A stretch of 64,000 nt of DNA from an uncultured Bacilli bacterium. Lineage in GTDB: Bacteria; Bacillota_I; Bacilli_A; RF39; UBA660. Shown piece by piece: positions 10,044-36,307 of the stretch (positions are counted from its first letter, which is position 1; each line of letters starts with the position of its first letter). Where the stretch lies: assembly GCA_910584165.1 (NCBI GenBank), contig CAJTZU010000002.1, forward strand, positions 141,811 through 205,810, read 5' to 3'. The position numbers and the translations under genes are program-made. The notes below the pieces were generated by a model that saw only the letters and a list, made by a program, of their open reading frames with translations, was not told the DNA's origin and made no database searches.

Positions 10044-10107
10044 ATACTCTACAAAATGTAGAGGAATTAGAAATATTCCTTATGGTATACTTTAGTTGGT
10101 GATAAAA

Positions 10108-10854
10108 ATGAGTATTGGAAAAAGAATTTCTTGTATGAGAAAAAAGAAGAACTTAACACAATCTGCTTTAGCGCATAGATTATATGTAACAGATAAAACA
10201 ATATCTAGTTGGGAGTCTGATAGAACAGAACCTAGTTTAGATATTTTAATGAATTTAAGTGAAATATTAGACTGCTCTGTTTCTTATTTAATGTATGGGG
10301 ATATAGAAAAACTAGATATTGAAACAGAGGTAAAAATCAAATTGACGGAGCAGGAATTTAAACACTTAGATTTTTTACTAAAAAGAGAAGCAGAATATTT
10401 AAAAGAAATTCATCATGTAGATACTTACTATTCTCCGAAACATGAATCTTTTTTAAATCAGGATAAAATTGTAGATTGGTTACGTATTGGCGAGCGAGGT
10501 AGTAAGAAAATATTAAATTATAAACATTGGTATGATGTACATTGTGATGAATATGAAGTTGAAATTAATGATTCTATTAATTTAGATAAAATATTTCATG
10601 CTTTACAATTAGAAAAAGTAGCGATAGTAGATAAAGTAAGGAAAACATATTTTTATCAAAATAAATATGAATTCGCATTAGACAAAGTAAAAGATTTAGG
10701 ATATTTTGTAGAAATTGAAATAAAAAATTATCAATCTTCTGTTATGGAAGAATATGATGCTTTATTAAAAGTAGCCAAATCATTTGAATTAAATTTAGAT
10801 CATATAGATAAAAAAGGTTATCCTTACGATTTAATAGAGCAGAAAGCTTCTTAG
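10108..10854 (+). CDS. XRE-family HTH fused to a CYTH (class IV adenylyl cyclase / triphosphate tunnel) domain
   Basis: The N-terminus (RISCMRKKKNLTQSALAHRLYVTDKTISSWE) is an XRE-type HTH. The C-terminus has an ExExK motif (DIETEVKIKL) and CYTH-like strands. The ORF track starts at TTG 10096; ATG 10108 is more likely. Confidence 0.65.
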   Translation: MSIGKRISCMRKKKNLTQSALAHRLYVTDKTISSWESDRTEPSLDILMNLSEILDCSVSYLMYGDIEKLDIETEVKIKLTEQEFKHLDFLLKREAEYLKEIHHVDTYYSPKHESFLNQDKIVDWLRIGERGSKKILNYKHWYDVHCDEYEVEINDSINLDKIFHALQLEKVAIVDKVRKTYFYQNKYEFALDKVKDLGYFVEIEIKNYQSSVMEEYDALLKVAKSFELNLDHIDKKGYPYDLIEQKAS

Positions 10855-14263: not shown

Positions 14264-14926
14264 GTGAAAGAATTAGAATTAGCGAAGATTTTATGGAATT
14301 ATTTATATTTAGGTGAAGAAATAAGAAAGTGTGATTGTATTTTAGGGCTTGGATGTTATGATTTGCACATTCCAGAAAAATGTGCACAACTTTATCATGA
14401 TGGTTATGGAAGCTTCATTATTTTTACAGGTGGGCTAGGAAAGTGTACAAATGGTGTTTTTAAAAAATCAGAAGCGGAAGTTTTTAGAGATATTGCTATT
14501 AATTTAGGTGTGCCAAAAGATAAAATTTTAATTGAAAATAAGTCGACAAATACAGGCGATAATTTTCGTTTTACAAAAGCATTAATAGAAGAAAAGAGAC
14601 TTAATGTCCATTCTTATTTGATTGTTCAAAAACCTTATATGGAAAGAAGAGCTTATGCTGCTTTTAAAGCAATTTTACCAACTGAAGAATGTAGTGTTAC
14701 TTCCCCAGATATTTCTTTTGAATCTTATTTTAAAGAATATGAAGACAGTAATGGCAGTATTAAAGAATTACTATGTGTGATGGTAGGAGATTTACAAAGA
14801 ATGAAAGTATATCCTTCTAAAGGATGGCAAATTGAACAAGATATTCCAATTACTGTATGGAGTGCCTATGAAGAATTAGTATCTATGGGATACGATAAAT
14901 ATGTGATTAAAGAAGAGTTGCAATAA
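14264..14926 (+). CDS. YdcF/DUF218 (SanA/ElyC-like) family protein
   Basis: GTG start after AAAGGGGA. DUF218 pattern CDCILGLGC...IIFTGGLG. Confidence 0.7.
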   Translation: MKELELAKILWNYLYLGEEIRKCDCILGLGCYDLHIPEKCAQLYHDGYGSFIIFTGGLGKCTNGVFKKSEAEVFRDIAINLGVPKDKILIENKSTNTGDNFRFTKALIEEKRLNVHSYLIVQKPYMERRAYAAFKAILPTEECSVTSPDISFESYFKEYEDSNGSIKELLCVMVGDLQRMKVYPSKGWQIEQDIPITVWSAYEELVSMGYDKYVIKEELQ

Positions 14927-14946
14927 ATAAAAAACTATGTTAGAAT
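14918..14946 (+). promoter_or_regulatory. Sigma-A-type promoter (TTGCAA-17-TAGAAT)
   Basis: -35 TTGCAA at 14918-14923, a 17-nt spacer, and -10 TAGAAT at 14941-14946. Sits just upstream of the leader-peptide RBS. Confidence 0.55.
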
Positions 14947-14976
14947 ACATTTACATTTAAACGAAGGAGGAATATT

Positions 14977-15021
14977 ATGAACCTAGTAATATGTGCTAAT
15001 AACCGTAGACGTAGCATCTAG
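14977..15021 (+). CDS. Leader peptide 1, MNLVICANNRRRSI (14 aa), with three consecutive Arg codons
   Basis: GAAGGAGG lies 6 nt upstream of the ATG. The stop TAG lies inside the left arm of a 10-bp stem. Confidence 0.55.
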   Translation: MNLVICANNRRRSI

Positions 15022-15063
15022 TACTTGTTTAAGCGAAAAGTGATTTCGTGGATACAAGTACTA
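15018..15063 (+). promoter_or_regulatory. Perfect 10-bp stem (CTAGTACTTGT / ACAAGTACTA) with a 25-nt loop that contains a nested CGAAA/TTTCG hairpin
   Basis: Direct inspection. Repeated at 15192-15237. Confidence 0.55.
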
Positions 15064-15100
15064 TTCGTCGTGCTTGTATCTAAGGTTTGTAATATGAAAA

Positions 15101-15132
15101 GACCTATGTGTACAAGCATGGGTCTTATTTTT
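15101..15132 (+). terminator. Attenuator terminator 1
   Basis: GACCTATG-TGTACAAG-CATGGGTC hairpin followed by TTATTTTT. The upstream segment GTGCTTGTA (15070-15078) is complementary to TACAAGCAT within this hairpin, giving an alternative anti-terminator pairing. Confidence 0.6.
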
Positions 15133-15150
15133 ATGGAAAGGAAGAATTGT

Positions 15151-15195
15151 ATGAAAAAACTAGTATATATAAATAACCGTAGACGCATCATCTAG
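15151..15195 (+). CDS. Leader peptide 2, MKKLVYINNRRRII (14 aa)
   Basis: Uses the duplicated RBS GGAAAGGAAG. Conserved core NNRRR(S/I)I. Stops at the equivalent TAG inside the second stem. Confidence 0.5.
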   Translation: MKKLVYINNRRRII

Positions 15196-15274
15196 TACTT
15201 GTTTAAGCGAAAAGTGATTTCGTGGATACAAGTACTATTCGTCGTGCTTGTATCTAAGGTTTAGAATATGAAAA

Positions 15275-15306
15275 GACCTATGTTACAAGCATAGGTCTTA
15301 TTTTTA
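15275..15306 (+). terminator. Attenuator terminator 2
   Basis: GACCTATG-TTACAAG-CATAGGTC perfect hairpin followed by TTATTTTT. Confidence 0.6.
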
Positions 15307-15323
15307 TAGAAAGGAAAAAAGAT

Positions 15324-16385
15324 ATGAAAAAAATAGAAAAAGAAATATTTTCTGTATTAAAAAAGTTTGTTTCATTTCCAACAATAGATGGAAATGAAGA
15401 AGAAATGAAGAAATTGTTAGAGTATGTAAAAACATTAGTACCTACAAATTTTATAGTGAAGGAATATTTATTTCAGACTAAACCAGTATTAGTAATCTCT
15501 AATACAGATTCTAAAGAGTTAGATATTGTTTTTTGTACTCATATTGATGTAGTACCCCATGAAAAGTATGAATTAGTTGAAAAAGATAATTTACTTTATG
15601 GGAGAGGCACTTTTGATATGAAGGGAGGGACAGTAGTTTCCTTACTCGCTTTATTAAATCAAGAGACTACTAAAAAGATAGGGATATTTTTAACGAGTGA
15701 TGAAGAAGTAGGTGGAAACTGCGTTAAAGAACTATTAAACATTTATCATCCTAAGTTTGGAATTATTCCAGATGGAGGTAATGATTTTCAATTAGTTAAG
15801 GAAGAAAAAGGAAGACTTTTATTGCAAGTTTCTATTTCCACAACTTCTTCTCATGCAGCAGAATTATATAAGGGTGAGAATGCTATTGCAACACTTTTCT
15901 CTGTTTATCAGAAATTATTAGAAAAATATCCAAATCCTACTTCTGATAAGGAATGGAAATCATCTATTTGCCTTACTCGTTTAGAAGGAGGAAAAGCTTT
16001 TAATCAAGTTCCTGATTATGCAGAAATGATTTTAGATATTAGAAGGATAGCAAGTGATTTTAAAATAGAATTTATAAATGCATTAAAGAAGATAGACTCT
16101 AGATTGAAAATAAAAGTATTAGCAAGTGAGACTCCATATTTAACAAATATAGAAAATGAAATGGTAAAAAAATTTTTACAATCTGTAAAAACCGTATTAA
16201 AAAAAGAAACTGTTATAACGCATTCTAATAGTACTTGTGATGGAATTTATTTTACTGAAAATGGAATTCCAACAGTATTGATGAATCCAACAGGAGGTTT
16301 TGCTCATTCTCCAAATGAGTATGTAGAAAAAGAGTCACTTCTTAAGCTTTATGAAATTTATATCAACTTTTTAAAAAATATGTAG
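15324..16385 (+). CDS. M20 family metallopeptidase / deacylase (ArgE/DapE-like)
   Basis: Motifs CTHIDVVP, GRGTFDMKGG and SDEEVGG (metal-binding His/Asp/Glu). 353 aa. Confidence 0.75.
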   Translation: MKKIEKEIFSVLKKFVSFPTIDGNEEEMKKLLEYVKTLVPTNFIVKEYLFQTKPVLVISNTDSKELDIVFCTHIDVVPHEKYELVEKDNLLYGRGTFDMKGGTVVSLLALLNQETTKKIGIFLTSDEEVGGNCVKELLNIYHPKFGIIPDGGNDFQLVKEEKGRLLLQVSISTTSSHAAELYKGENAIATLFSVYQKLLEKYPNPTSDKEWKSSICLTRLEGGKAFNQVPDYAEMILDIRRIASDFKIEFINALKKIDSRLKIKVLASETPYLTNIENEMVKKFLQSVKTVLKKETVITHSNSTCDGIYFTENGIPTVLMNPTGGFAHSPNEYVEKESLLKLYEIYINFLKNM

Positions 16386-17151: not shown

Positions 17152-17221
17152 TTTTCACCTAAACATTAAAATGTTATAATAAAGAAAATAGAGTATCTGT
17201 TATGAAAATGAGGTGAAGTTC

Positions 17222-20200
17222 ATGGCTTATCGGTATCGAAGATATCAAATATTTAGAAAAAAGTTACCTGTACCAAAAGAAGTATTAAAACGTATTTATA
17301 ATAGAAAAGCAACTATAGAAGATATTATTCAATATGATTTAAAAGATAAAGTGCCTACAGATTGTTTAGACTATAAGTATAGTGAGATTTCTGCTATTGT
17401 TGGAATGGAAGTAGCAGTAGCTTTAGATTGGGATACGATTTTACCACTTCAATCTTATCAGTTATTAAATTGGTTTAGAAACAATAGTGCTTCTAGAGCA
17501 TTAGATTGGAATAACTTATTATATAAAACTATTAAAGAAGAGTATTTTAAAAATCTTTTAGATGGAGTTAGCTCTTATGATATGCTGATTTTTAAACTAA
17601 AAGATAGTTATTCTGATTTCCATTTTGAAAGATTAGGAGAAAAGTTTGAAAAAGCAGTGCCAGAACTTTTCTATGCAACTAGTAAAGAGGCAGCTAGTGA
17701 TTTGTTTTCTAAAAGATTTATGATTAATGACTATATAGAGCATTTTAAAGATTATGTGAAAGCTCCAGAGGATATTGTTAAAGATGCTTTTCAAAGTGAT
17801 GTAGATGTTAGGTTATATCAATTTTTAAATCCTTATTTAAAAAGCGGGAATACTTATGAAGAAGAAAAATTATTGGTTCAACTTGTTTTTAGTAGTAGAT
17901 ATCATTATGAATACGAAAAATATTTAGAAATATTAAATTTTAATCCCGGAATAAGTGCTCATGATTTTTTAGAAAAAGCTTGTTTGCAAAGAATAAAAGA
18001 ACAACATTGGCTAAAACCAAATTCTTACTATATTAGTAAGTATAATATGGGAAAAGAGCACAAGTTTTCTTTTGGGCAGAGTATCGATTATGACTCTTTA
18101 TCATTAGTAGATCAATATCCTGAGTATCGAGTTATTTTTTCACAGTTTTTAAATGGGACTTTGAAGTTTACTTCTTCTATTTCCGATTATGATAGTATAG
18201 AAGCTTATGTTGCTTACTTAATACTAGAATTTAATTTGGAATATGATGGAACTTTACCAGAAAAATTTAAGGAATTATATCCAGAACTTTTTATTACATC
18301 CGATTACAATTTAGCAGATGATTTTTACCGAAAAAAATTAACTCCAGAAATGATTCAAAAAAGACCAGTTTATGTTGAACTTTTAAAAGATAAAAAAGTT
18401 TTTCTCGGATTTAAGGAGCAGGATCTGGTAACATTCATTAAAGCTATTGGAAATGATAAGTTTTTTAAGTTTTGTTTAAAATATGGTTCTCATTTGGTTC
18501 CTGTTACTTTAGAAAATGAAAATCAGACTTATGAGGAAAGATTAGAACAAGAGATTATCGATAGTATTGTACAAGGAAAATGTAAGTATCAAGACTTAGA
18601 AGAGGTAGAAAGTATTACTTCTAAAATACCTAATTATTTTTTGGATAATAGTTTTCCAAAAGAATTAAGAGAGCTTTTTTATAGTGGAGAATTAACTCCT
18701 ATTCTATTAAAAAAAAACCAAAAATGGATTCATTTAATGAAAGATAAGGAGCTTTTTACAGCTTTACAATATCTTCACCGAGATTTATATACTGCTGTTG
18801 GAAAAGAGAATTTCTTGATGTTATGCCAAGGTTACGGAACAGTTATTTCAGATATGTATTTTTTTTCTTATCATTTTAAAGATATGTCAGTAGAAGAAAT
18901 TTTAAAAGAGATAGAGGATAAAATTTATAATCGTATCTATCTTTACCGCATCCCTTATGATGACGATATGCCTATTTCTTTTAAAGAAAAGTACCCACAT
19001 CTTTTTTTACCAGAAACGATTAGCGAGGAATTAAGAACAAAATTTTATAGCAGAGAATTAACTCCTTTAGATTTTGAAGAAAATGATTTTCTATTTTCTT
19101 ATTTTGAAAATCTAGATATTGCTTGTTATCTCAAAGAGGAATATCTTTGGCTAGTAGGAAAAGAATTGCAAAATAATAAAGAAAAATTAAAAATTGCAGC
19201 CTTCTATGGAAAAATTCATACGAAAGATCTTCAAGAAATATTTAAAAAAATTGTATTAGAAAATATTAGTACTCTTAATTTTGATAGAATAGATAATTTA
19301 GCTGATTTATTAGTTACACTTTCTTATTCTAATTCTGGTGAAATTAGAAAATGTAGAGCAGAGCTGGCTAATCAGTTAATCAATCTAGAGAATCCAAAAG
19401 AGAAGTTGGAAAGAATCGAAGATATTTTTTTGGCAAATAATCTTCCAACGGTTGGTAAAGTATTTTTAGTATTTCAAACTTTATATCCTGATTTTAGGGG
19501 ATTTGATTTTAGTGAAGATTCTAAAGTATCTCCAATTTTAAAAAGTAAAACAAACCGAAGTAGAGAAGTTATTATTTTTTCAGATTTATTAAAAATAGCA
19601 TTTGGCTCTAATAATAGGTCTATCAAATCTTATTTAGAAAATATTGAAAATGGCTATAGGACATTTTTACAAATTCAAAATGATCGAATTTCTTTAGAGG
19701 AGTTAGAAGAAAGTGAAAGAACTACTTTATCTATTTTTTTAACCCATTTAAATACTTTATATAATAATACAGAGAAAGGAAAAAAAGAGCCTCATAAATT
19801 ATCTAATGATATAAAAAGAGATGTTAATGATTTTGTATCTCTTTATGCAAGTAAAGAGTTGATAGATTATGATTTACCAGATAGAATTATTAAGATGTTT
19901 TGCCATTTTGCCGGTTTTGATAGTTTTGAAAAGGCAAAGGCGTATGCTACTCAAAAACCTATTTTAGCAGATCAAAGAAATAGAAAGTCTTCTAGAAATA
20001 GTTTTCAGTTAACGCAAGGTGATTTTATTAAAGGAATAAGAGATATTAAATATTTAAAGAGCATATTACAAAATGGTTCTTTAGCTGTAGAATTTTTAGG
20101 AGCTTCTGCTGATAAGGATAGCACACCATTAGATACAGATTTATCACGTATATTAAAAGTAGAAAATTCGATTAGTGAAACAGTTTCTAAAACAGAAGCA

Positions 20201-21451
20201 TCAGGTTATGGCTCTATTTATTTAATACTTAAAAATGATGATAGATTCTGTATTACTAGAAGAAGTTCTTCTGAAGAACAGGGTATAGATGAAGTAGATA
20301 TTAACAAGATAGAGGCATTTTATACAGGCGCTACAGGAAAAGATCATTACGGAATTCGCACTGGATTTGCTTCTTCTGAAATTGATTATATTATGACAAA
20401 AGAATATGATGAAAGAATAGGGTTAGAGATTGCCATGAATGGTTTTTATATTCCTGTTGTAGATACTTCTGGTAATTTGATATTTGCTCCAGAGGATTAC
20501 GATTCTTTAAGGAAAAAAATGTCAGGTTTATCTTATTTTGGAGAGAAAGAATATATATTTTCTCAAAATCTGCATTTTGATGGAATAGAAGAAGTAGTGG
20601 AATCTCTTTCTAGAAATGAAGAAGAGGCTCAAATGAAAAGAGAAGTCATAAATCAAAAGGTTTTAGAGGCAATTGATGAAGTGGGTTTGGGTCTTAAAAC
20701 TGTTATTGATGGAAACTTAAAAGAAGGTACTGTTGAACTAATCGATACTGGCTCAACTGGTCGTGGTACTAATTTACCTCAATCTGGAGATTTTGATTTC
20801 ATTATGAGATTAGATAAAAAAATAATAGCTGACACTCACAAAACGAAAATATTAAAAGAAAAAATATTGCAGAAATTGGGAAAAAATAATTTTAATATGA
20901 TAACGAATAGTGGCGATTTTAGATTAAAGGGTGTTCAATTAGAAGGTTTAGAACAAGCTATCGATATTGATATAACTTTTATTGAGAAGACTGATAAGAT
21001 ATCTTATTCTACTGATATGGCTTTAAGAGATAGACTATTTAGTATAAAAAAGCAAGATAAAAGCAAGTACTCTTTGGTTCTTGCCAATCTTTTGCTTGCT
21101 AAAAAGGTATTGAAAGAAGCTAGTGTTTATAAACCAAATCGTGGCGAAGTCGCGCAAGGTGGTTTAGGAGGAGTAGGAATAGAAAATTGGATTCTACAAA
21201 ATGGTGGCTCTTTTTTAGATGCTGCTAGTAGTTTTTTAGAAGCATCAGAAGGAAAAACTTTTCAAGAATTTAAAGCCCATTATAGTATTTGGGATTTTGG
21301 AGAAAATCATTTTACGGATAGAAATGGTGTTTATCCACATGATGAATTTGTTAGAAACAATATGAGCGAAGAAGGATATTTAAAGATGAAACAGGCACTA
21401 GAACATTATCTTAATCAGTTAGGATATTCTTTTAAAAAGAGAAGGAAGTAA
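17222..21451 (+). CDS. Giant protein (about 1410 aa) with a C-terminal Pol-beta-superfamily nucleotidyltransferase domain resembling cGAS/DncV/OAS-like enzymes
   Basis: GSTGRGTNLPQSGDFDFIM (a GS-x-RGT...[DE]h[DE]h motif) plus a third acidic cluster IDIDI about 53 aa downstream. The N-terminal 1100 aa have no known domain; three YP.LF...FY..ELTP repeats occur. ATG 17222 follows GAGGTGA; the track starts at GTG 17213. Confidence 0.65.
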   Translation: MAYRYRRYQIFRKKLPVPKEVLKRIYNRKATIEDIIQYDLKDKVPTDCLDYKYSEISAIVGMEVAVALDWDTILPLQSYQLLNWFRNNSASRALDWNNLLYKTIKEEYFKNLLDGVSSYDMLIFKLKDSYSDFHFERLGEKFEKAVPELFYATSKEAASDLFSKRFMINDYIEHFKDYVKAPEDIVKDAFQSDVDVRLYQFLNPYLKSGNTYEEEKLLVQLVFSSRYHYEYEKYLEILNFNPGISAHDFLEKACLQRIKEQHWLKPNSYYISKYNMGKEHKFSFGQSIDYDSLSLVDQYPEYRVIFSQFLNGTLKFTSSISDYDSIEAYVAYLILEFNLEYDGTLPEKFKELYPELFITSDYNLADDFYRKKLTPEMIQKRPVYVELLKDKKVFLGFKEQDLVTFIKAIGNDKFFKFCLKYGSHLVPVTLENENQTYEERLEQEIIDSIVQGKCKYQDLEEVESITSKIPNYFLDNSFPKELRELFYSGELTPILLKKNQKWIHLMKDKELFTALQYLHRDLYTAVGKENFLMLCQGYGTVISDMYFFSYHFKDMSVEEILKEIEDKIYNRIYLYRIPYDDDMPISFKEKYPHLFLPETISEELRTKFYSRELTPLDFEENDFLFSYFENLDIACYLKEEYLWLVGKELQNNKEKLKIAAFYGKIHTKDLQEIFKKIVLENISTLNFDRIDNLADLLVTLSYSNSGEIRKCRAELANQLINLENPKEKLERIEDIFLANNLPTVGKVFLVFQTLYPDFRGFDFSEDSKVSPILKSKTNRSREVIIFSDLLKIAFGSNNRSIKSYLENIENGYRTFLQIQNDRISLEELEESERTTLSIFLTHLNTLYNNTEKGKKEPHKLSNDIKRDVNDFVSLYASKELIDYDLPDRIIKMFCHFAGFDSFEKAKAYATQKPILADQRNRKSSRNSFQLTQGDFIKGIRDIKYLKSILQNGSLAVEFLGASADKDSTPLDTDLSRILKVENSISETVSKTEASGYGSIYLILKNDDRFCITRRSSSEEQGIDEVDINKIEAFYTGATGKDHYGIRTGFASSEIDYIMTKEYDERIGLEIAMNGFYIPVVDTSGNLIFAPEDYDSLRKKMSGLSYFGEKEYIFSQNLHFDGIEEVVESLSRNEEEAQMKREVINQKVLEAIDEVGLGLKTVIDGNLKEGTVELIDTGSTGRGTNLPQSGDFDFIMRLDKKIIADTHKTKILKEKILQKLGKNNFNMITNSGDFRLKGVQLEGLEQAIDIDITFIEKTDKISYSTDMALRDRLFSIKKQDKSKYSLVLANLLLAKKVLKEASVYKPNRGEVAQGGLGGVGIENWILQNGGSFLDAASSFLEASEGKTFQEFKAHYSIWDFGENHFTDRNGVYPHDEFVRNNMSEEGYLKMKQALEHYLNQLGYSFKKRRK

Positions 21452-21467
21452 ATTTCCTTCCTTTTTT
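21441..21467 (+). terminator. Rho-independent terminator
   Basis: GAAGGAA-...-TTCCTTC hairpin followed by TTTTTT. Confidence 0.65.
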
Positions 21468-21531
21468 ATGATGAAATAAATTGACATATTTTTTCTTTTT
21501 TGGTATAGTATAGACGATTTGGGGGATTAAT

Positions 21532-23352
21532 ATGAAATATAAACTTATAAAAAAAGTTGCATTAGGACTTGCTGCGACAGCAATTATAACAGTAACATCA
21601 GGATGTCAAGAGAAAGAATCAGATATTCCAAAAACAGCAGTTATAGAAACAGGAGAATTTCAAAATGTGTACGAGGATGAACCTACTTTTGATGCAAGTG
21701 GAGAGTCTGTCACTTATAAAGGTCATGTTTATGCTATAGCGCATGATCCATCTACAGAATATGTTACGAATGAATATACTCCAGTTTCTTATGAAAATGG
21801 GATAAATACAAATCAGTTATTTTTTGTAAGAATAAATGGAAATATTTATTTAGCAACTAAATTAGTTGATAAGAATGAGAATAATATTATTTCAAAATAT
21901 TACGAATTAGCTACAGGTAAATTTTTAGGGCAAACTTTGGCTATAAATTGGTATGCTAGAGCAACTTCTAATATTGAGCAAGTTGTTCCTAAGGGTGGAA
22001 AACCAAAAGTATATAGTGCCACCGTTTCTTCGGAACTATTAGATAATAATTATTTTGATGGGGAATATGGTTATGGAAAGAATATTGTGCCAGAAGCGGT
22101 TATTAATGCTTCTTCTGTGATTTCTGATACTAGATTAAGTAAAGAGCAAATAGATGTATTGTTAACAAATACCTTACTTACTACTAGTTATGTAGAAAAT
22201 TATTTGTATGATGGATTAGTATCTATGCCAAAAGAAGATTATTATTTTATTCCGTTAAGATATACGGATGGATTTGGTATAGTTACTTGGGGCTTTTTTG
22301 CAGGCTTTAGAGGTGAAACTTCTTACTATCATAATCAAATGCAGGAGATTACAATAGCATCAGAAGAGGGAGAGAAAACGTTAGTTGGTTACTTTGGAAG
22401 CACTAATAAAAATGATAATGGATATAACTATGTTTATGATATTTCATCTGGAACTTTTGTAGAAGTTTCTAGTTGTAATATTATTAGTAAAAAAGGAATT
22501 GTTTCTAAAATCACAGTAGGAGAAATTAGAAATCGGTTTTTTCCATCTTTAACAGAATCTTATCCTATAGAATCTTTAAAAGTTATCTCAACTAAAAACC
22601 TTGAAGGAGATGATGTATTTGAAGATTACTATATTGTTATGCGTGAAAAGTATGTTAGTGGAGATACTTATAGATATCAGGTTTTGGGGGAAGAAGAATT
22701 TGTATCAGTTGCTGGCGCTTATGATGGAGCTCATTTAGGAATTGCTAAGAATGGTTCTTTTAAATTAACAACAGCAGGAGAATATGATGGAAGGATGATG
22801 CCTTTACAGGAATGTCTTACGAAAAATGGTTTATCTCATTACGAAAAAGAAACTTATACAGATGAAGAACTTACTTTATTACTTGTAAAATTAAGAGAAA
22901 AAGAATTAGATTTAGGAGATAAGCAACCATTAACAGAATCTCGTACAAAAATAAATGCAGAAGATATCATAGTAGTAGATACTACTAAAGAAGATAGTGA
23001 TTATGTACTTGTTGGAAGTGAGCAAAGATATTATGTATTAGTACCTTATGAGATGTCAGAGGAAATACAACAGCAATATCCTAATAGAAAGTACTATGAA
23101 GTTTTTGACCATAGTGCATTATGTGGTTTATCGGTAGAAGAAGGATACTTAAGAATAGATACTCTTGGTCATGATTTTTACTATGTTTATAAGATGGACG
23201 GAGAATTAAAGGGGATATCAACTTTCCATGATGTTTTAGCAGAAAATGGATTAGAAGATTCCGTTAGGGATGGATATTATCCTGCTGATTTACAAATTTT
23301 AGTAAATAAGCTTAATAATAAAGGAAAAGAATATATTAAGAAAGCTCAATAA
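21532..23352 (+). CDS. Lipoprotein (606 aa) of unknown function
   Basis: Signal peptide with a lipobox (LAATAIITVTSGC). Asn/Tyr/Gly-rich body. Confidence 0.7.
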   Translation: MKYKLIKKVALGLAATAIITVTSGCQEKESDIPKTAVIETGEFQNVYEDEPTFDASGESVTYKGHVYAIAHDPSTEYVTNEYTPVSYENGINTNQLFFVRINGNIYLATKLVDKNENNIISKYYELATGKFLGQTLAINWYARATSNIEQVVPKGGKPKVYSATVSSELLDNNYFDGEYGYGKNIVPEAVINASSVISDTRLSKEQIDVLLTNTLLTTSYVENYLYDGLVSMPKEDYYFIPLRYTDGFGIVTWGFFAGFRGETSYYHNQMQEITIASEEGEKTLVGYFGSTNKNDNGYNYVYDISSGTFVEVSSCNIISKKGIVSKITVGEIRNRFFPSLTESYPIESLKVISTKNLEGDDVFEDYYIVMREKYVSGDTYRYQVLGEEEFVSVAGAYDGAHLGIAKNGSFKLTTAGEYDGRMMPLQECLTKNGLSHYEKETYTDEELTLLLVKLREKELDLGDKQPLTESRTKINAEDIIVVDTTKEDSDYVLVGSEQRYYVLVPYEMSEEIQQQYPNRKYYEVFDHSALCGLSVEEGYLRIDTLGHDFYYVYKMDGELKGISTFHDVLAENGLEDSVRDGYYPADLQILVNKLNNKGKEYIKKAQ

Positions 23353-23377
23353 AAAGACTAGTTAGGGTCTTTTTTTG
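23353..23377 (+). terminator. Rho-independent terminator
   Basis: AAAGAC-...-GTCTTT hairpin followed by TTTTTT. Confidence 0.5.
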
Positions 23378-23455
23378 TAAAGTAATTTTATTATATTGAA
23401 ATTATCCTTTTTTGATGAAATTTATGGTATAATAAATAAAAATAGGAGGAACTGT

Positions 23456-25882
23456 ATGAATAATGTAAGAGAAATAGTCAGTTTAATTAATAATAGTGGT
23501 AAATATTATGGTGATTTTAGAGCTTGCTCAGAAGTTAGAAATGAAATGAACCAAGCGGATGTTTATGGGGAACTTGGCTTTTATTTAAATTATGCAAACA
23601 TTCATACAGAAGAAGAAAAACAGGCTTTTTTAGAAATATTAAAGTCATGTAGTTTTTCTCCTTGCCTTAGTATAGATGCCATATATTTAAATAATCCAGA
23701 AGTTATGGAAGCAATAAAAAATTCTGATACTATAAGAGAGATTAGAATTATTAATGAAGGATATAAAATAACTCGTGATGTTTTTAATCAATTTCGTAAT
23801 AAAAATATAGCAATTGTTTGTGATGAAGCATCAGAAGATTTAGAAGAAGAGATTAGAAAAGGATTATTATATAATCTTCATCTTCAAAAAGGAATTTATA
23901 AAAGAGAATTTAATCTTTTCCGTGGTAACAGTAATTATGGCTTTTTTATTGATAGAGAGTTAACAGATTCAGAATTAAATACCTTTGTTTCTGAGGTAAA
24001 TAAAGTAGCAGAATATTATTCTGCAATTGTTAGTTTAAGAGTATATGATCCTAAAAAATATAAAAATTTTATATCTCGTCTTCAAATGGCAGGATTGAAT
24101 GACAATGTAACTATTCAGTTTTTAGGAAACCCTCTTTATGATAAAGAAGAAGATTATAAAGGATTAGATGCTCTTTCTAATAATCCGATTAGTATTATAT
24201 ATGACACTTGTAGTGATATGATTGATCAGTATCAAACAGAACCTTTCACTGTAGATAATTCCCATTGCTCGGAGTTAGAAGGTGGAGGAACTACTACATT
24301 TGACTCTTATTTTCATACAATAAAAATGCTAAGTGAGCAAGAAAGGCATATTAAAGAAAAAGATTACAGTCCTTTAGAGACTATGGTGTATGGATATCGT
24401 TATCTACAACAAAATTATGCCTATGATCCTAATATTGATGAAACAGATGCGATTAGTTATTTGACGAATAGGCAATTAGATGCTGTAGCTAATAGAAAAA
24501 CCATAGTTTGTGTGGGTTATGCTACTTTGTATTCTGCTTTAATGAGAAGATGTGGTTTACCAGTATTTAGATATGCAACAGATGAGCATGTTAGAAATAT
24601 AGGTAGATTAGTTGATCCAAAATATGGTATTGATGCGATTGGTGTTATTGACCCCACTTGGGATTGCTCCTCTTTCGAAAATGGAAGATTTGTTGAAAAG
24701 GATAACTTTAACTATTTTATGTTTTCTCCTAAGCAAATAGATAGATTAGACAGTTATGTAACAATTCCGTATAGCTTAGTAATCGATAATGATGCTCAAA
24801 TTGATTCTTTTCCATATTCAGATTGTTATAAATTACTTCCAAGATACTTTAGTGCGGTATCTAGAGATCCAATTGAAGTTTATCGGGACCCTATTTATTT
24901 CCCTGAGGGGTATGCAAGTACTATGTTAGAGCTTATGGGATTTGATTTATCTAAGATATCATCACCGGAAGAATATAAAGAATTTTTAAGAAGTTTAAAT
25001 AAAACTTCAATATTTAATAGAGTACAAAGTGAAACTATAGGAGAGGCTTATAAGAAAGTTATAGAAACAGAGCATCCAAAAAGGCTTCCTATAATTATAC
25101 AAAGTCTTGTTTCTAAGATGAAAATAAACAGAGATTTAAATCATTTGCCACATAAACCATTAAAAGCTCATATTATGGGTGTTCCCGAATTAGAACAAGT
25201 TCCATGTATTTATGATTTCGAAGAAACTCTAAACATTGAAGACTTTAATAAAAAAGAAGATATAACTATAGAAGAACCAATTCTGGTGGCAGATTTTGAG
25301 GAAATCTCTCCTGCAAATTCTTTTGTATATGATTGGGAGTCCTTACCAGACGATGAATATTTAAGTGCAGAAGATAGTTTAAAATTAGCACAAGAAAGAG
25401 GAATGGCATTAGTCTCTGGTGGAAGATATCACATTAATTACTTAACAGATGAAGAAAAGAAAAGATATCATATAGTCCAAAAAATAGATTGGGAGTCCTT
25501 ACCAGATGATGAATATTTAAGCGCAGAAGATAGTTTAAAATTAGCACAAGAAAGAGGAATGGCATTAATCACTGGAGGAAGATACCATATCAGTTATTTA
25601 ACAAAAGAAGAGAAGAAAAGATATGGAGTAGCACAAAAAATAGATTGGAAATCTTTACCAGATGATGAATATTTAAGTGCTGAGGATAGTTTGAGATTAG
25701 CACAAGAAAGAGGAATGGTATTGACTCCTGGAGGAAGATACCATATTAGTTATCTAACAGAAGAAGAAAAGAAAAGATATAAGGTCGCAGCTGCTGACGA
25801 AGATCAAGATGGAGTTAAAATGGAGTTAGATTTTGGTCTTCAAATACCTTCTTCTGAAATGGATGGCGGAATGTCTCTTTGA
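23456..25882 (+). CDS. Transglutaminase-like cysteine peptidase superfamily protein with three C-terminal 52-aa tandem repeats
   Basis: TGase core CVGYATLYSALMRRCGLP (Cys), DEHV (His) and IDPTWD (Asp). ATG 23456 follows AGGAGGAA; the track ORF starts at 23396. Confidence 0.7.
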   Translation: MNNVREIVSLINNSGKYYGDFRACSEVRNEMNQADVYGELGFYLNYANIHTEEEKQAFLEILKSCSFSPCLSIDAIYLNNPEVMEAIKNSDTIREIRIINEGYKITRDVFNQFRNKNIAIVCDEASEDLEEEIRKGLLYNLHLQKGIYKREFNLFRGNSNYGFFIDRELTDSELNTFVSEVNKVAEYYSAIVSLRVYDPKKYKNFISRLQMAGLNDNVTIQFLGNPLYDKEEDYKGLDALSNNPISIIYDTCSDMIDQYQTEPFTVDNSHCSELEGGGTTTFDSYFHTIKMLSEQERHIKEKDYSPLETMVYGYRYLQQNYAYDPNIDETDAISYLTNRQLDAVANRKTIVCVGYATLYSALMRRCGLPVFRYATDEHVRNIGRLVDPKYGIDAIGVIDPTWDCSSFENGRFVEKDNFNYFMFSPKQIDRLDSYVTIPYSLVIDNDAQIDSFPYSDCYKLLPRYFSAVSRDPIEVYRDPIYFPEGYASTMLELMGFDLSKISSPEEYKEFLRSLNKTSIFNRVQSETIGEAYKKVIETEHPKRLPIIIQSLVSKMKINRDLNHLPHKPLKAHIMGVPELEQVPCIYDFEETLNIEDFNKKEDITIEEPILVADFEEISPANSFVYDWESLPDDEYLSAEDSLKLAQERGMALVSGGRYHINYLTDEEKKRYHIVQKIDWESLPDDEYLSAEDSLKLAQERGMALITGGRYHISYLTKEEKKRYGVAQKIDWKSLPDDEYLSAEDSLRLAQERGMVLTPGGRYHISYLTEEEKKRYKVAAADEDQDGVKMELDFGLQIPSSEMDGGMSL
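25331..25798 (+). repeat. 3 x 156-bp near-identical in-frame tandem repeats, encoding WESLPDDEYLSAEDSLKLAQERGMAL..GGRYHI.YLT.EEKKRY
   Basis: Repeat copies start at 25331, 25487 and 25643 with about 90% nucleotide identity. Confidence 0.85.
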
Positions 25883-25902
25883 TTTATAATTTTTAGATAA
25901 TA

Positions 25903-25931
25903 AAAGCAAGATAATGTCATCTTGCTTTTTT
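25903..25931. terminator. Bidirectional terminator between convergent genes
   Basis: AAAGCAAGAT-...-ATCTTGCTTT hairpin with flanking T/A runs. Confidence 0.65.
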
Positions 25932-29093: not shown

Positions 29094-29720
29094 ATGTCTA
29101 AATTATCTAATATACTATTAATGCTGCAGTTTTTACAAAATGGAAGAAAATATAGTATTAAGGAATTAGCAGAAAAATTAGAAGTGTCAGAAAGAATGAT
29201 TAGAAAATATAAAGAAGAATTAGAATATGCTGGGATACTAGTAGATACAATAAAAGGTCCTTATGGTGGCTATGTATTAAATAAAGATTTCAATATTCCA
29301 TATTTGAATTTTACTAATGATGATTTAGATATTATTCGTGAGTCTTGTCAATTGATGAAGGATTCTAATATGAAGCAGGGATTGACAGATATTTATTCTA
29401 AAATTACTTTAAATTTAAATAATAAAAAGAATAATCGTAAACCTATATTTTCAGAAAATTTAGAATTAAATGTATTTAATAAAGTAAATAATGCTTATAA
29501 AAATAATTTGAAATTAAAAATTAAATATTACAATTTACAACATGGAGAGTCTATAAGAACTATTTATCCTCTTGGGTTATATTTATTTCAAAATGAATGG
29601 TGGGTTTCTGCTTATTGGGAAGAAAAAGAGGATATGAGACAGTTCCACTTAAAAAGAATAAGAGATTGTGAAATATTAGATTGTAAATTTGATCCTAATG
29701 AAATTAATATAAAATTTTAA
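29094..29720 (+). CDS. WYL-domain transcriptional regulator (YafY/DeoR-type HTH plus WYL)
   Basis: N-terminal HTH (YSIKELAEKLEVSERMIRKYKEELEYAGIL). The WYL-like region is IRTIYPLGLYLFQNEWWVSAYWEEKEDMRQFHLKRI. Confidence 0.65.
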   Translation: MSKLSNILLMLQFLQNGRKYSIKELAEKLEVSERMIRKYKEELEYAGILVDTIKGPYGGYVLNKDFNIPYLNFTNDDLDIIRESCQLMKDSNMKQGLTDIYSKITLNLNNKKNNRKPIFSENLELNVFNKVNNAYKNNLKLKIKYYNLQHGESIRTIYPLGLYLFQNEWWVSAYWEEKEDMRQFHLKRIRDCEILDCKFDPNEINIKF

Positions 29721-30592: not shown

Positions 30593-31537
30593 TTGGACTT
30601 ATATGAAAGTGAAATTATTCTAGACGATGCGGATATTCAAGCGGATTTAGATGCTGAAATAGGTATTCTAGCAGAAATGGATGTTGAAAAAAGACTGCCA
30701 AAGTATAAAGAGGGCAATAAAGTTTTTGGATTTTTTCTTCCAGGAAATAAAACTGCAATTATATCTAAAGTATATGATGCAGTAAATGAAACTGGATATC
30801 CAATATATCAAATTGTTGATGAAGAAGGAGTAATACATGATGTATGTGAAACTTTGTTTGATGATGAGGAGACTTTAATTGCGATGGGAATATTGCCAAA
30901 TCAAGCTGGCATAGTAGCTGAAAAAGATAGTGATTATATAGAAAAGATAAGGCAAGAGAATGAAGAGGCAATAGAACAAATTATAAATAGCTTAGGTTTA
31001 AAAAGTTCTGAAGATTCCATAGAGCAATTAAAAAATTGTTGTAGACTACAGGCTTATATGGCAGAAAATAATAGTTACAATAGCAATGTAATGGCAGAAA
31101 AAGGAAATTATTCTGATGAATTTATTACAGATATAGATTTACATAATGCATTAGTTGAAAAAAGTGGCGTTTGCACATCCAATTCTTTAATGTTTCAAAG
31201 TATTTTGAGTAAATTAGGAATTCCAGTAGAGTGTATTGGATTAACGGTTGATTCAGGTGGATTTCATATGGCAAATATAGTTCTATTACATGGAGAATGG
31301 TATTATTTTGATACTACTCTTGAAGGTGAAATTCGTAGGGATAATCAAGCTCAGGAGCTTGTTTTGTGTTGTGCAGGTTTAGGTAGTCAAGAATATTGTC
31401 CATATTTTAATCCACAATGTATCGTAAGGAAAGATGAAACTTTAGAATTACCACAGAATATTTCAGTAGAAAGAATTCCCATTTCTGTTGTAAATAGTTT
31501 TTTAGAGCAAAGTAGTTATAGTGAGAAAAGTAAATAA
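30593..31537 (+). CDS. Transglutaminase-like cysteine peptidase domain protein
   Basis: SGVCTSNSLMFQSILSKLGIP (Cys), GGFHMANIV (His) and YYFDTT (Asp). Confidence 0.65.
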   Translation: MDLYESEIILDDADIQADLDAEIGILAEMDVEKRLPKYKEGNKVFGFFLPGNKTAIISKVYDAVNETGYPIYQIVDEEGVIHDVCETLFDDEETLIAMGILPNQAGIVAEKDSDYIEKIRQENEEAIEQIINSLGLKSSEDSIEQLKNCCRLQAYMAENNSYNSNVMAEKGNYSDEFITDIDLHNALVEKSGVCTSNSLMFQSILSKLGIPVECIGLTVDSGGFHMANIVLLHGEWYYFDTTLEGEIRRDNQAQELVLCCAGLGSQEYCPYFNPQCIVRKDETLELPQNISVERIPISVVNSFLEQSSYSEKSK

Positions 31538-33195: not shown

Positions 33196-33705
33196 ATGCT
33201 GGAAGTAGAAAGAAAATATAAATTAAAATATTTGCCAGATCTTTTGGATAACTATGAACGTGAAGACATAGAGCAAGCATATTTAAATTTTGGTAGTAAG
33301 CCAGCAGTTCGAATAAGAATGATAAATGGGATTGATTGCTTTTTGTATTGTAAAAGCAAAAAAGATAATGCAAACGGTTTTCAAGTATGTGAGGAGTATG
33401 AGATACCTTTATCTAAAGATGCCTATACTCATTTAATGATGAAGATTGATGGACGTGTTTTAAGAAAAAGAAGATACATCATTCCTTTAGCTCAAGAATT
33501 AAAAGTAGAACTTGATTTATTTGAAGATTTTTTTGATGGTGTATGCATTGCAGAAATAGAGTTTCCAAATGAGGAAATAGCGAACACTTTTAAATTACCA
33601 GATTGGATTGGCGAAAACATTTCTGATGATGAAAGAATCGCCAATGGTTTTATGGCTGTAAAAGCAAAGAAGATAAGTGAGTATAAAGATTTGATTATAA
33701 AATAA
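33196..33705 (+). CDS. CYTH domain protein (CyaB/YjbK-like triphosphate tunnel metalloenzyme)
   Basis: N-terminal ExExK (LEVERKYKL) and a CYTH-like acidic strand pattern. Confidence 0.65.
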   Translation: MLEVERKYKLKYLPDLLDNYEREDIEQAYLNFGSKPAVRIRMINGIDCFLYCKSKKDNANGFQVCEEYEIPLSKDAYTHLMMKIDGRVLRKRRYIIPLAQELKVELDLFEDFFDGVCIAEIEFPNEEIANTFKLPDWIGENISDDERIANGFMAVKAKKISEYKDLIIK

Positions 33706-34480: not shown

Positions 34481-34587
34481 AACATATTTTGAACTGATTA
34501 GAAATAGTCAGTTCTTTTTTTATGCCCATACATAGCCATTTTATATTTATAGAGTGGCTAGAGTTTAAAGAAAGGAGGAAAATGTAT

Positions 34588-35412
34588 ATGTCGCAATGCA
34601 AAGTAATTGCAGTGGCTAATCAAAAAGGTGGTGTGGGCAAAACCACTACGGCTTTTAATCTAGGAATCGCATTATCAAATCTAGGTAAAAAAGTGTTATT
34701 AGTTGATACTGATCCACAGGGTGATTTAACTACTTATGCAGGTTGGTATGAGCAAGACAAAATACAGAAAACTTTATCTACTTTAATGGAACAATCAATA
34801 AATGATGAGCCAATAAAAGCAGAAGAAACCATTTTACACCATAAAGAAAATATTGATTTAATTCCATCTAATTTGGATTTATCTGTATTAGAAATGTCAT
34901 TAGTAAATGCAATGAGTAGAGAGTACACTATGAGAAATTGTTTATCAGAAGTAAAAAAGGATTATGATTATGTCATATTAGACTGTATGCCGAGTTTAGG
35001 AATGATAACAATAAATGCTTTAGCCTGTGCAGATAGTGTAATTATTCCAGTACAAAGCCAATATTTTGCTGCAAAAGGTATGACACAGTTATTGCAGTCT
35101 ATAAAGAAAGTAAAAAAACAAATCAATCCAGATTTAAAGATTGATGGTGTTTTACTTACTTTGGTAGATAAAAGAACTAATCTATCAAGAAATATAGAGA
35201 AGCAATTAAGAGAAGATTATGGAAGTGCATTAAAAATCTATAATACACAAATACCTCTTGCAATAAAAACTGCTGAATCTACACAACAGGGTAAGAGTAT
35301 ATTTACTTATGATAAGAGCAGTAAAGTGGCAGAAGCATATTCTTCGTTTGCAAAGGAGGTGCTTGAAGATGGCAAAGAGCGAACAAAGAATGCCGTTGCC
35401 AAAGTTAGATGA
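34588..35412 (+). CDS. parA: ParA/Soj-family partition ATPase
   Basis: Deviant Walker A motif (KGGVGKTT in AVANQKGGVGKTTTAFNLG). Confidence 0.85.
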   Translation: MSQCKVIAVANQKGGVGKTTTAFNLGIALSNLGKKVLLVDTDPQGDLTTYAGWYEQDKIQKTLSTLMEQSINDEPIKAEETILHHKENIDLIPSNLDLSVLEMSLVNAMSREYTMRNCLSEVKKDYDYVILDCMPSLGMITINALACADSVIIPVQSQYFAAKGMTQLLQSIKKVKKQINPDLKIDGVLLTLVDKRTNLSRNIEKQLREDYGSALKIYNTQIPLAIKTAESTQQGKSIFTYDKSSKVAEAYSSFAKEVLEDGKERTKNAVAKVR

Positions 35413-36307
35413 TTTATTTACAACAGAAACCGAGCGACAAGAAGCAGAATTAGAAAAAGTTAAAAATATATCACTAACAGATATTCAAGATTTTCCAGAA
35501 CACCCTTTTAGAGTTATTGTAAATGATGAATTGCAAGAAATGGCAAACAGTATTAAAAAAGATGGTGTCCAAGAACCTGCGTTAGTTAGACCACTTCCAA
35601 ATGGTAAATATGAAATGATTTCTGGTCATAGAAGAAAAAAAGCAAGTGAAATTGCTAATAAAGAAACTATGCCTTGTCTTGTTCGAGATTTAACAGATGA
35701 ACAAGCAGCGATTATAATGGTAGATAGTAATTTACAACAAAGACAAAAAATACTATTTAGTGAAAAAGCATTTGCTTATAAAATGAAATTGGAAGCAATG
35801 AAAAAGCAGGGATTTAGAACAGATTTAACTTCTGACCAAATTGGGGAGAAGTTGACATCAGTAGAAAAATTATCTGCTAATAGTCCAGATAGTAAATCAC
35901 AAATACAAAGATTTATAAGACTTACTGAACTAACAAAAAGTTTGCTTGATATGGTAGATGAAGAAGTCATTGCATTTAGTCCGGCAGTAGAAATATCATA
36001 TCTTACTAAAGAAGAACAAAAATGGCTTCTTAATAGTATTGAATGTAATATTGCTACACCAACTTTATCACAAGCCCAAGAAATGAAACGATTAAGTCAA
36101 AGTGGGAATTTAGATGAAGATAAAATCGAAGAAATAATGAGCCGTGAAAAACCTAATCAAGTGGAAAAACTAAAATTAGATTTTAAGACACTAGCACCTA
36201 AAATGCCAAAAGGTATGCCATCAACAAAATATACAGAGCATATCTTCAAAGCATTGGACTTCTACAACAAGTATTTGGAAAAACAAAAATCAATGGGAGC
36301 AAGATAA
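35369..36307 (+). CDS. parB: ParB/Spo0J-like partition protein
   Basis: ParB N-terminal box (PFRVIVNDELQEMANSIKKDGVQEPALVRP...ISGHRRKKAS). ATG 35369 follows AAAGGAGG and overlaps the parA 3' end. Confidence 0.75.
   Translation: MAKSEQRMPLPKLDDLFTTETERQEAELEKVKNISLTDIQDFPEHPFRVIVNDELQEMANSIKKDGVQEPALVRPLPNGKYEMISGHRRKKASEIANKETMPCLVRDLTDEQAAIIMVDSNLQQRQKILFSEKAFAYKMKLEAMKKQGFRTDLTSDQIGEKLTSVEKLSANSPDSKSQIQRFIRLTELTKSLLDMVDEEVIAFSPAVEISYLTKEEQKWLLNSIECNIATPTLSQAQEMKRLSQSGNLDEDKIEEIMSREKPNQVEKLKLDFKTLAPKMPKGMPSTKYTEHIFKALDFYNKYLEKQKSMGAR

Follow-up and report, generated by a model that had tools for sequence, protein, structure and literature searches.

Many toxin, immunity and RNA-repair systems work through enzymes with an ADP-ribosyltransferase (ART) fold or through nucleotidyltransferases (NTases) of the DNA polymerase β (Pol-β) type. 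Of those closest to the protein described here, Tpt1 acts on an RNA 2′-phosphate and DarT on single-stranded DNA, and the CCA-adding enzyme, the terminal uridylyltransferases (TUTases) and the poly(A) polymerases (PAPs) act on RNA 3′ ends. Multi-enzyme 'polyvalent' proteins are found in phages and conjugative elements (PMC5512222). We analysed a stretch of 64 000 nucleotides (the window; from contig CAJTZU010000002.1) of an uncultured Bacilli bacterium, and in it a giant open reading frame (ORF; 17213/17222–21451, bounded by sequence and homologue alignment), the C-terminal ~750 residues of which form a module of three parts: a helical domain comes first, an ART fold second and a two-lobed Pol-β NTase last. 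A large family, for which no annotation was found, is defined by this module. Both folds are already known, but their fixed fusion in a ~750-residue module that ends giant proteins appears to be undescribed, and literature searches for an ART-plus-NTase module found no description. All coordinates are those of the window, the features of the giant gene and of the two genes that follow it lie on the + strand, and residues of the giant protein are counted from the GTG at 17213.

A C-terminal NTase domain

The two-lobed NTase domain occupies aa ~1157–1412 (20681–21448) and was recognised by motif, AlphaFold2 (AF2) model, Foldseek search and conservation. An initial annotation, made from the sequence alone, had noticed in the giant ORF a GS...DFDF motif with an IDIDI cluster downstream, and had proposed from them a CD-NTase (cGAS/DncV-like nucleotidyltransferase) or OAS-like enzyme. 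The ORF and both elements are real: GSTGRGTNLPQSGDFDFIM, which carries the GS...DxD motif, spans aa 1180–1198 (nt 20750–20806), and the IDIDI cluster at aa 1250–1254, 52 residues beyond the end of that motif, contains the third Asp, D1253 (nt 20969–20971). The AF2 model, which covers aa 661–1412 and was made with 13 aligned homologues as input, has a mean predicted local distance difference test (pLDDT) score of 85.4 and a predicted template modelling (pTM) score of 0.87. Its last ~250 residues run, as expected for such an enzyme, from a strand (1173–1178) through the GS and a helix to the strand bearing D1193 and D1195 (1193–1200), then to a later strand bearing D1253 (1250–1258), and end in a helical lobe with the motif AKKxLKExxxYK...GGxGGxGxENWxLQxGG. 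In an alignment of 187 family members, consisting of top-scoring representatives and some cluster members, G1180, S1181, D1193 and D1195 are each kept in 186, and D1253 is Asp in 179 and Glu in six.

Foldseek comparison with the Protein Data Bank (PDB) gave as top match the class I CCA-adding enzyme of A. fulgidus (1r89; E 6e-4), followed by Cid1 and TbTUT4 and then by CdnC/CdnE/CdnD, NF90 and MiD51; none of the top 60 matches was a protein- or antibiotic-modifying NTase. Judged by the model, the C-terminus is a genuine Pol-β-type NTase of the two-lobed structural group that includes class I CCA-adding enzymes, PAPs, TUTases, OAS, cGAS and CD-NTases, and the domain is almost certainly active. 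The structural comparison places the RNA 3′-end enzymes marginally nearer than the signalling enzymes, a gap too small for family assignment. A pseudo-enzyme reading was rejected, the catalytic residues being invariant.

The class I CCA-adding enzyme (1r89, 4x4n) has the same head and neck arrangement as the NTase domain; it presumably also shares a GS-x-x-R-x-T...D-x-D strand motif, with the third Asp on the strand next to it, and its GFSGY..E motif probably resembles the Gly-rich 'GG.GG.G.E' of the helical lobe of the giant protein. However, the giant protein has the NTase without the tRNA-holding body and tail (215 of the 436 residues of 4x4n align) and ends ~230 residues past the GS motif. 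Sequence-profile similarity between the two was not detectable, and the NTase of the giant protein is acidic and stands behind an ART domain at the end of a 1409-aa protein. The Cid1-type TUTases and the non-canonical and canonical PAPs (4e7x, 8oef, 1q78, 6ywn, 6l3f) differ in another way: Pfam PAP_assoc was not matched, MTPAP-like_central was matched by one of 11 members tested (E 0.031), those families are eukaryotic, and no RNA-binding accessory domains were recognised in the giant protein.

With the CD-NTases (CdnC, CdnB, CdnE, CdnD, CdnG, DncV), OAS1 and cGAS, which rank slightly below the RNA 3′-end NTases as structural relatives, the domain shares the Pol-β core G[GS]...[DE]x[DE] and the third acidic residue on the adjacent strand, kept in ~186 of the 187 members. 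However, the corresponding profiles stayed below threshold (Pfam SMODS 12.8–14 bits against a cut-off of 26.5; PADLOC Cyclase E 0.023, 12 bits), the giant protein is not a stand-alone enzyme of ~300–400 aa, and it is accompanied by no genes for an effector of cyclic-oligonucleotide-based antiphage signalling systems (CBASS), Cap2/Cap3 or HORMA/Trip13. The absence of a canonical CBASS effector or Cap gene had been seen in the initial annotation and is borne out by the lack of PADLOC matches on the neighbours. The fold and the structural group that it proposed were thus right, as the structure prediction shows, but the assignment to the CD-NTases or OAS is not established. A motif-level 'CD-NTase' call can hit the fold yet overlook the architecture that defines a protein and miss where the genes really begin and end.

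An ART-fold domain behind a helical domain

The ~1100 aa in front of the NTase had been described as having no recognisable domain, which proved to be incorrect. In an alignment of the first 13 homologues, conservation begins near aa 690 rather than at the NTase, and the AF2 model shows in order a helical domain (661–925), an α/β domain (~930–1110), a long helix and the NTase. The all-helical domain (aa ~661–925; 19193–19987), seen in both the homologue alignment and the model, is the first part of the conserved module, and its motifs include SNSxE, NNxPxxGK and SP. The next domain (aa ~930–1110; 20000–20542), identified by the model and its structural matches, adopts in that model an ART fold, with Tpt1 and DarT as nearest relatives; in the fold search with the whole model, Tpt1 was the first match outside the NTases and the RelA/SpoT proteins. 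Further structural matches were CteC, OspC3, CopC, the Salmonella NAD-binding effector 7dn9, TccC3 and Rhs toxins, together with CC0527, PARP1 and other PARPs, cholera-like and diphtheria-like toxins, RES, MbcT and Arr. That the initial annotation overlooked this conserved domain is of consequence, since it changes what the protein is.

Near-invariant positions in the ART domain are D937 (185 of 187), K/R940 (186), E960, D969, T971, D974, D976, E1034 (185), F1036, H1045 (182) and R1049 (184). Of the residues that might correspond to an ART triad, each of them near-invariant, K/R940 is on the first strand, T975 immediately ahead of the second and E1034 on the fifth; this equivalence was assigned by strand order, not superposition. 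In comparison with the known ART clades, Lys or Arg stands where His (H-Y-E) or Arg (R-S-E) would be expected, and the giant protein has an unusual invariant D-x-T-P-L-D-T-D. Although the fold is alike, it differs from Tpt1/KptA and DarT in matching neither Pfam PTS_2-RNA nor DarT, in that no Tpt1 N-terminal RNA lobe was identified, and in having no nearby gene for a DarG-like macrodomain antitoxin; none of the annotated neighbourhoods of family members contains such a macrodomain gene.

A large family with a variable N-terminus

With a 752-residue core profile, representatives of at least 1312 clusters (50 % identity) were retrieved at E ≤ 1e-3, 859 of them reaching E ≤ 1e-30, and the whole module is present in all of the best 150 matches; a word-indexed search gave 824 clusters at 90 % identity, and a single-protein scan of genome contigs gave 12 loci in metagenome-assembled genomes (MAGs). 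No Pfam family or precomputed Pfam domain covers the module, which stands in over a thousand sequence clusters without a Pfam model, and among the members for which a source-given name was seen it was always 'hypothetical protein'. Pfam, NCBIfam and PADLOC returned nothing above threshold on the giant ORF. In 11 core sequences and 10 long members, Pfam recognised nothing in the N-terminal or additional regions beyond Transglut_core (P0096), one DUF4116 repeat (P0246) and sub-threshold noise.

Family proteins range from ~730 to 6900 aa, and the module is nearly always C-terminal, with medians over the 187 aligned members of 684 aa ahead of it and 9 aa beyond it. The region before it is fast-evolving and often repetitive. 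In the giant protein itself this region, the variable, acidic N-terminal ~660 aa, matches no Pfam family in its repeat part and contains, as the initial annotation had noted, three repeats of ~120 aa with the pattern [YF]PxLF...FYxxELTP (at aa ~356, ~472 and ~594; 18278–19066). The closer homologues share the repeat in varying number, with five in P0007 at a spacing of ~142 aa, whereas distant members, including those resembling the candidate phyla radiation (CPR) proteins, have none. A hydrophobic segment occurs in just 11 of the 187 members, mostly as a C-terminal tail anchor; P0017, P0027, P0031, P0078, P0084, P0098 and P0120, a minority, each have a single one that lies no more than ~70 residues from the C-terminus and may be a tail anchor. 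Two further variants were seen: P0096 (Transglut_core at aa 220–321) and P0187 (L024, 8001–27299) form a branch of 4.9–6.9 thousand aa that has Transglut_core near the N-terminus and ~770 residues after the module, and P0008 (795 aa, on four contigs) is the N-terminal half alone, ending where the conserved module begins, a possible result of gene truncation or splitting, or of misassembly.

The members identified to date belong to CPR bacteria, with one annotated as Candidatus Uhrbacteria, and to uncultured gut Bacilli, Erysipelotrichaceae and Clostridia. The MAGs that contain the closest relatives of the giant ORF were obtained from samples of mouse, rabbit, goat and rumen and bear the labels uncultured Bacilli, Erysipelotrichaceae, Clostridia or Firmicutes. 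For such poorly understood, uncultured, host-associated or small-genome carriers (gut Bacilli, Clostridia, CPR), a gene of 4–20 kb is a large investment. Like the polyvalent proteins and the ART multidomain effectors, the giant protein is a very large polypeptide that joins an ART-fold domain to another nucleotide-dependent enzyme domain. In contrast to the polyvalent proteins, its gene is chromosomal with housekeeping surroundings, a family search of IMG/VR viral contigs found nothing, and its C-terminal module is fixed rather than made of shuffled domains. A phage or plasmid origin of the giant gene was rejected, given the chromosomal housekeeping surroundings and the negative viral scan.

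The neighbourhood in the window was compared with those of ~15 other independent genomic contexts, and the check for a conserved partner that the initial annotation had proposed was negative: no neighbouring gene is conserved across them. The annotated contexts have differing, mostly housekeeping flanks (ribosomal proteins, SecDF, KsgA, MetRS, EzrA, GreA/TopA, PolA, LepA), and all-against-all clustering of the flanking ORFs showed a generic ABC ATPase family as the only one common to at least three contexts. In the lineage of L001, L004 and L006, whose homologues are 74–85 % identical to the giant protein, the gene has an ABC-type ATPase on one side and His_Phos_1 and PNP_UDP_1 on the other.

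Homologues of the giant gene also adjoin His_Phos_1 in two distinct lineages, one being L021–L023 and the other represented by L001 (14228–14770) and L004 (4999–5541). In the former (L021, 5467–12590; also L022 and L023), NrtR (Nudix/WHD_NrtR), His_Phos_1, AAA_28 and the giant gene lie in that order on the same strand, with an NAD kinase and a second NrtR upstream. A link of these contexts to NAD/ADP-ribose metabolism is possible.

Proposed function and alternatives

Both domains look catalytically competent, because the metal triad of the NTase and about ten polar residues of the ART domain are near-invariant. If both are active, the giant protein would be a dual transferase, a cytoplasmic enzyme whose ART domain would use NAD+ and whose NTase would use nucleoside triphosphates (NTPs), and the variable N-terminal repeat array would most likely recognise or position the target. 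Because the enzymes that both domains most resemble in structure work on nucleic acids, that target may be a nucleic-acid (RNA) end or a nucleotide-like substrate inside the producing cell. To this whole reading, of a dual transferase with a fixed helical–ART–NTase module acting on such a substrate in its own cell, we give a probability of roughly 0.45. Its parts differ in strength: the architecture of the module is very probably correct, whereas the substrate class, which is argued by analogy, is tentative. A protein that has both domains with conserved, catalytic-looking residues is in any case a concrete candidate for new chemistry of NAD+ and NTPs.

Several results weigh against this reading. 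At the level of sequence, Pfam NTP_transf_2 reached 15 bits against a cut-off of 21, a phmmer search of PDB sequences with the protein gave nothing relevant, and hmmsearch against the same set, run with the core profile and with a profile of the NTase alone, matched no NTase at E ≤ 10; because the profile searches were empty, the NTase domain is an orphan by sequence. The ART domain fares similarly: Pfam, applied to 11 family members, gave no match to an ART family at E ≤ 1, and there is a non-significant probability of 0.3 % when its alignment was compared with E. coli KptA by hhalign, and no obvious canonical triad (H-Y-E or R-S-E). All domains of the module are net acidic family-wide (median charge –8 for ART and –7 for NTase), which is unusual for nucleic-acid-binding enzymes and more in keeping with a small molecule or a basic protein as substrate, and the tRNA-binding body and tail of the CCA-adding enzymes are missing. 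In addition, flanking genes differ even at 85 % identity (the window compared with L001 and L006), and the fast-evolving N-terminus and non-syntenic location look more like those of a conflict-related or accessory gene than of a housekeeping RNA enzyme.

A more specific proposal, which we consider possible though rather unlikely, is that the module is an undescribed two-activity system coupling NAD+-dependent ADP-ribosyl transfer (or Tpt1-like phospho-ADP-ribosyl transfer) and nucleotidyl transfer on the same substrate, with the hypervariable N-terminal repeat array as a sensor or targeting device. If so, it could yield an ADP-ribose-containing nucleotide signal or a new modification of nucleic-acid ends, and such a system would be widespread in uncultured gut Firmicutes and CPR bacteria.

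The acidity of the module is what would be expected of an enzyme for small nucleotides, and together with the variable, repeat-rich N-terminus, a genomic position that is not conserved among 85 % identical homologues, and the weak SMODS and PADLOC cyclase matches on the active-site strand, it agrees with a CD-NTase/OAS-like second-messenger synthase. The giant protein would then be, in an adaptation of the initial proposal, a defence system in a single polypeptide, in which the variable N-terminal repeats sense an invader and the response is either a signal made by the NTase or the action of the ART domain as built-in effector, possibly with an ADP-ribose-containing nucleotide as product. We regard this as unlikely. 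The SMODS and PADLOC scores are far under their cut-offs, the RNA 3′-end NTases outrank the CD-NTases, and the searches revealed neither an NTPase switch nor any known sensor domain. Cap and effector genes are likewise missing, and the surroundings are not those of a defence island, the neighbours being housekeeping genes such as those for Sua5, a ThiI-like protein, M20, ribosomal proteins, GreA, TopA, PolA and aminoacyl-tRNA synthetases.

Somewhat less probable again is an enzyme or toxin that modifies proteins, the ART domain ADP-ribosylating and the NTase AMPylating or otherwise nucleotidylylating a protein, either endogenous or, by an unrecognised export route, in a neighbouring or host cell. 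Many of the ART structural matches are indeed protein-targeting toxins or effectors (CteC, OspC3, CopC, 7dn9, TccC3, Rhs toxins, PARPs), acidic domains with invariant Asp and Glu would suit basic protein substrates, the producers belong to host-associated or episymbiotic lineages, and a few members have a C-terminal membrane anchor. However, no signal peptide and no secretion-system, immunity or antitoxin gene turned up in any of the contexts, and a conserved C-terminal enzyme behind a variable N-terminus is the reverse of the arrangement in polymorphic toxins. The polymorphic-toxin reading itself was rejected for that position of the conserved part and for want of an immunity gene.

The His_Phos_1 and NrtR contexts described above, on the same strand in L021–L023 and, for His_Phos_1, immediately downstream in the L001/L004/L006 lineage, and the ART-fold NADases RES and MbcT among the structural matches, are consistent with a metabolic or regulatory enzyme linked to NAD+ or ADP-ribose, with the ART domain as a sensor or NADase that controls the NTase or feeds it substrate. 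This is quite improbable, because only two of the ~15 independent contexts show the association, His_Phos_1 being a common family, because the window has no counterpart to it, and because a variable repeat region of ~650 aa is hard to explain in a metabolic enzyme.

The giant gene as a separate transcription unit

The likely true start of the giant ORF is the ATG at 17222, giving 1409 aa, rather than the GTG at 17213, giving 1412 aa, because a GAGGTGA ribosome-binding site precedes it and the N-termini of homologues match there (MxYRYK). Upstream lies a promoter-like site, TTTTCA-17-TGnTATAAT (17152–17180; 10 of 12 matches in the promoter scan, with TG), and a hairpin resembling an intrinsic terminator, found by the terminator scan, covers the stop codon (21441–21460). 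No signal peptide and no membrane segment were found in the giant protein. The giant ORF is thus a stand-alone gene with its own promoter and terminator.

The next gene (21532–23352) has a near-consensus σ70-type promoter of its own, TTGACA-17-TGnTATAGT (21481–21509; 11 of 12 matches in the scan), and encodes the 606-aa lipoprotein already predicted in the initial annotation, which belongs to no Pfam family. By inspection of the pattern, its N-terminus is MKYKLIKKVALGLAATAIITVTSG|C25, with a basic N-region, a hydrophobic maximum at residues 3–23 and a signal peptide ending in the lipobox VTSG|C25. A weak hairpin with a T7 run follows it (23353–23375; 5–6 bp, poor in G-C, below the threshold of the terminator scan).

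The third gene (23456–25882) encodes a transglutaminase-like protein, recognised from Pfam and sequence. The mechanical ORF begins at TTG 23396 and has 828 aa, but the gene probably starts at ATG 23456 (808 aa), ahead of which an extended –10 and AGGAGG were read by eye rather than found by the scan. The 828-aa ORF matches Transglut_core with 23.0 bits, equal to the Pfam cut-off of 23 (E 1e-4; aa 320–394, nt 24353–24577), and a triad read by eye consists of Cys372 in VCVGYA, a downstream His in DEHVRN and an Asp in IDPTWD, as the initial annotation had held; its membership of the transglutaminase-like superfamily is on this sequence evidence marginal. A signal peptide and a membrane segment are both lacking. 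At the C-terminus of the protein lies the repeat that had also been noted, 156 nt (52 aa) in 2.9 tandem copies (25331–25780; sequence and repeat scan). The 52-aa unit, DW[EK]SLPDDEYLSAEDSLKLAQERGM..(x)GGRYHIxYLTxEEKKRY, matched no Pfam family, and its DNA copies are 88 % identical, which suggests a recent duplication. A terminator-like hairpin found by the scan (25902–25929) separates the gene from a convergent radical-SAM (S-adenosylmethionine) gene.

The initial annotation had treated 17222–25882 as a single terminator-bounded unit with terminators at 21441, 23353 and 25903, a description that contradicts itself by placing a terminator after each gene; the scan found the first and the last of these, but not the weak hairpin at 23353. 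From the terminator at the stop codon of the giant ORF, the promoter before the lipoprotein gene and the hairpin, extended –10 and AGGAGG before the transglutaminase-like gene, we conclude that the three genes are separate transcription units and that their adjacency is fortuitous. Comparative evidence points the same way. Searched by tblastn against loci L001–L020, the lipoprotein, the transglutaminase-like protein and other neighbours from the window were found in the 98 %-identical L003 alone, whose contig breaks off just past the giant gene. Neither the lipoprotein gene nor the transglutaminase-like gene occurs within 10 kb of the homologue in the other 19 loci, the 74–85 % identical L001, L004 and L006 included, and phmmer found no similarity of either protein to 195 family proteins; the two genes are unrelated neighbours of the giant gene. 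That they form one functional operon with it, in which a signal from the NTase acts on the envelope through the lipoprotein and the transglutaminase-like protein, is therefore very improbable and already largely refuted, with their adjacency on one strand in the window and the one distant cluster (P0096/P0187) with Transglut_core fused at the N-terminus set against separate promoters and terminators, the absence of both genes elsewhere and a transglutaminase-like protein without an export signal.

Other features of the window

The window has a G+C content of ~28 %, and nearly all of its genes are on the + strand. Upstream of the giant ORF, Pfam identifies genes for an HTH-CYTH (helix-turn-helix) protein, 5-formyltetrahydrofolate (5-FTHF) cyclo-ligase, Sua5/YrdC, a ThiI-like protein, DUF218 and an M20 peptidase, and downstream those for the convergent radical-SAM enzyme, which is of the MiaB type, a WYL regulator, a second transglutaminase-like ORF and an M32 carboxypeptidase; the genes around the giant ORF are ordinary chromosomal ones. 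A scan of the window for tRNA genes and Rfam elements found none.

The HTH_3-CYTH fusion protein is encoded at 10096–10854, and its gene is also carried by the near-identical locus L003; a separate, stand-alone CYTH protein is encoded at 33196–33705. The intergenic region 14926–15324 contains two near-identical terminator-like hairpins (AAGACCTATG...GGTCTT) at 15099–15126 and 15273–15299, 174 nt apart, which look like a small duplicated element. HTH-WYL regulators are often tied to defence or stress loci; the one at 29094–29720 lies 3 kb 3′ of the three-gene stretch, and no adjoining defence gene was identified. The second transglutaminase-like ORF (30593–31537) is shorter than the first and lies 5 kb downstream of it, with a Transglut_core match (E 0.0018) under the cut-off. 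The AT skew climbs from ~34 kb of the window onward, and genes for ParA (AAA_31/CbiA) and ParB are followed by a 2631-aa ORF (34522–36307 and 41442–49337), a region that could represent an integrated element, conjugative or plasmid-like, encoding a giant protein of the polyvalent type.

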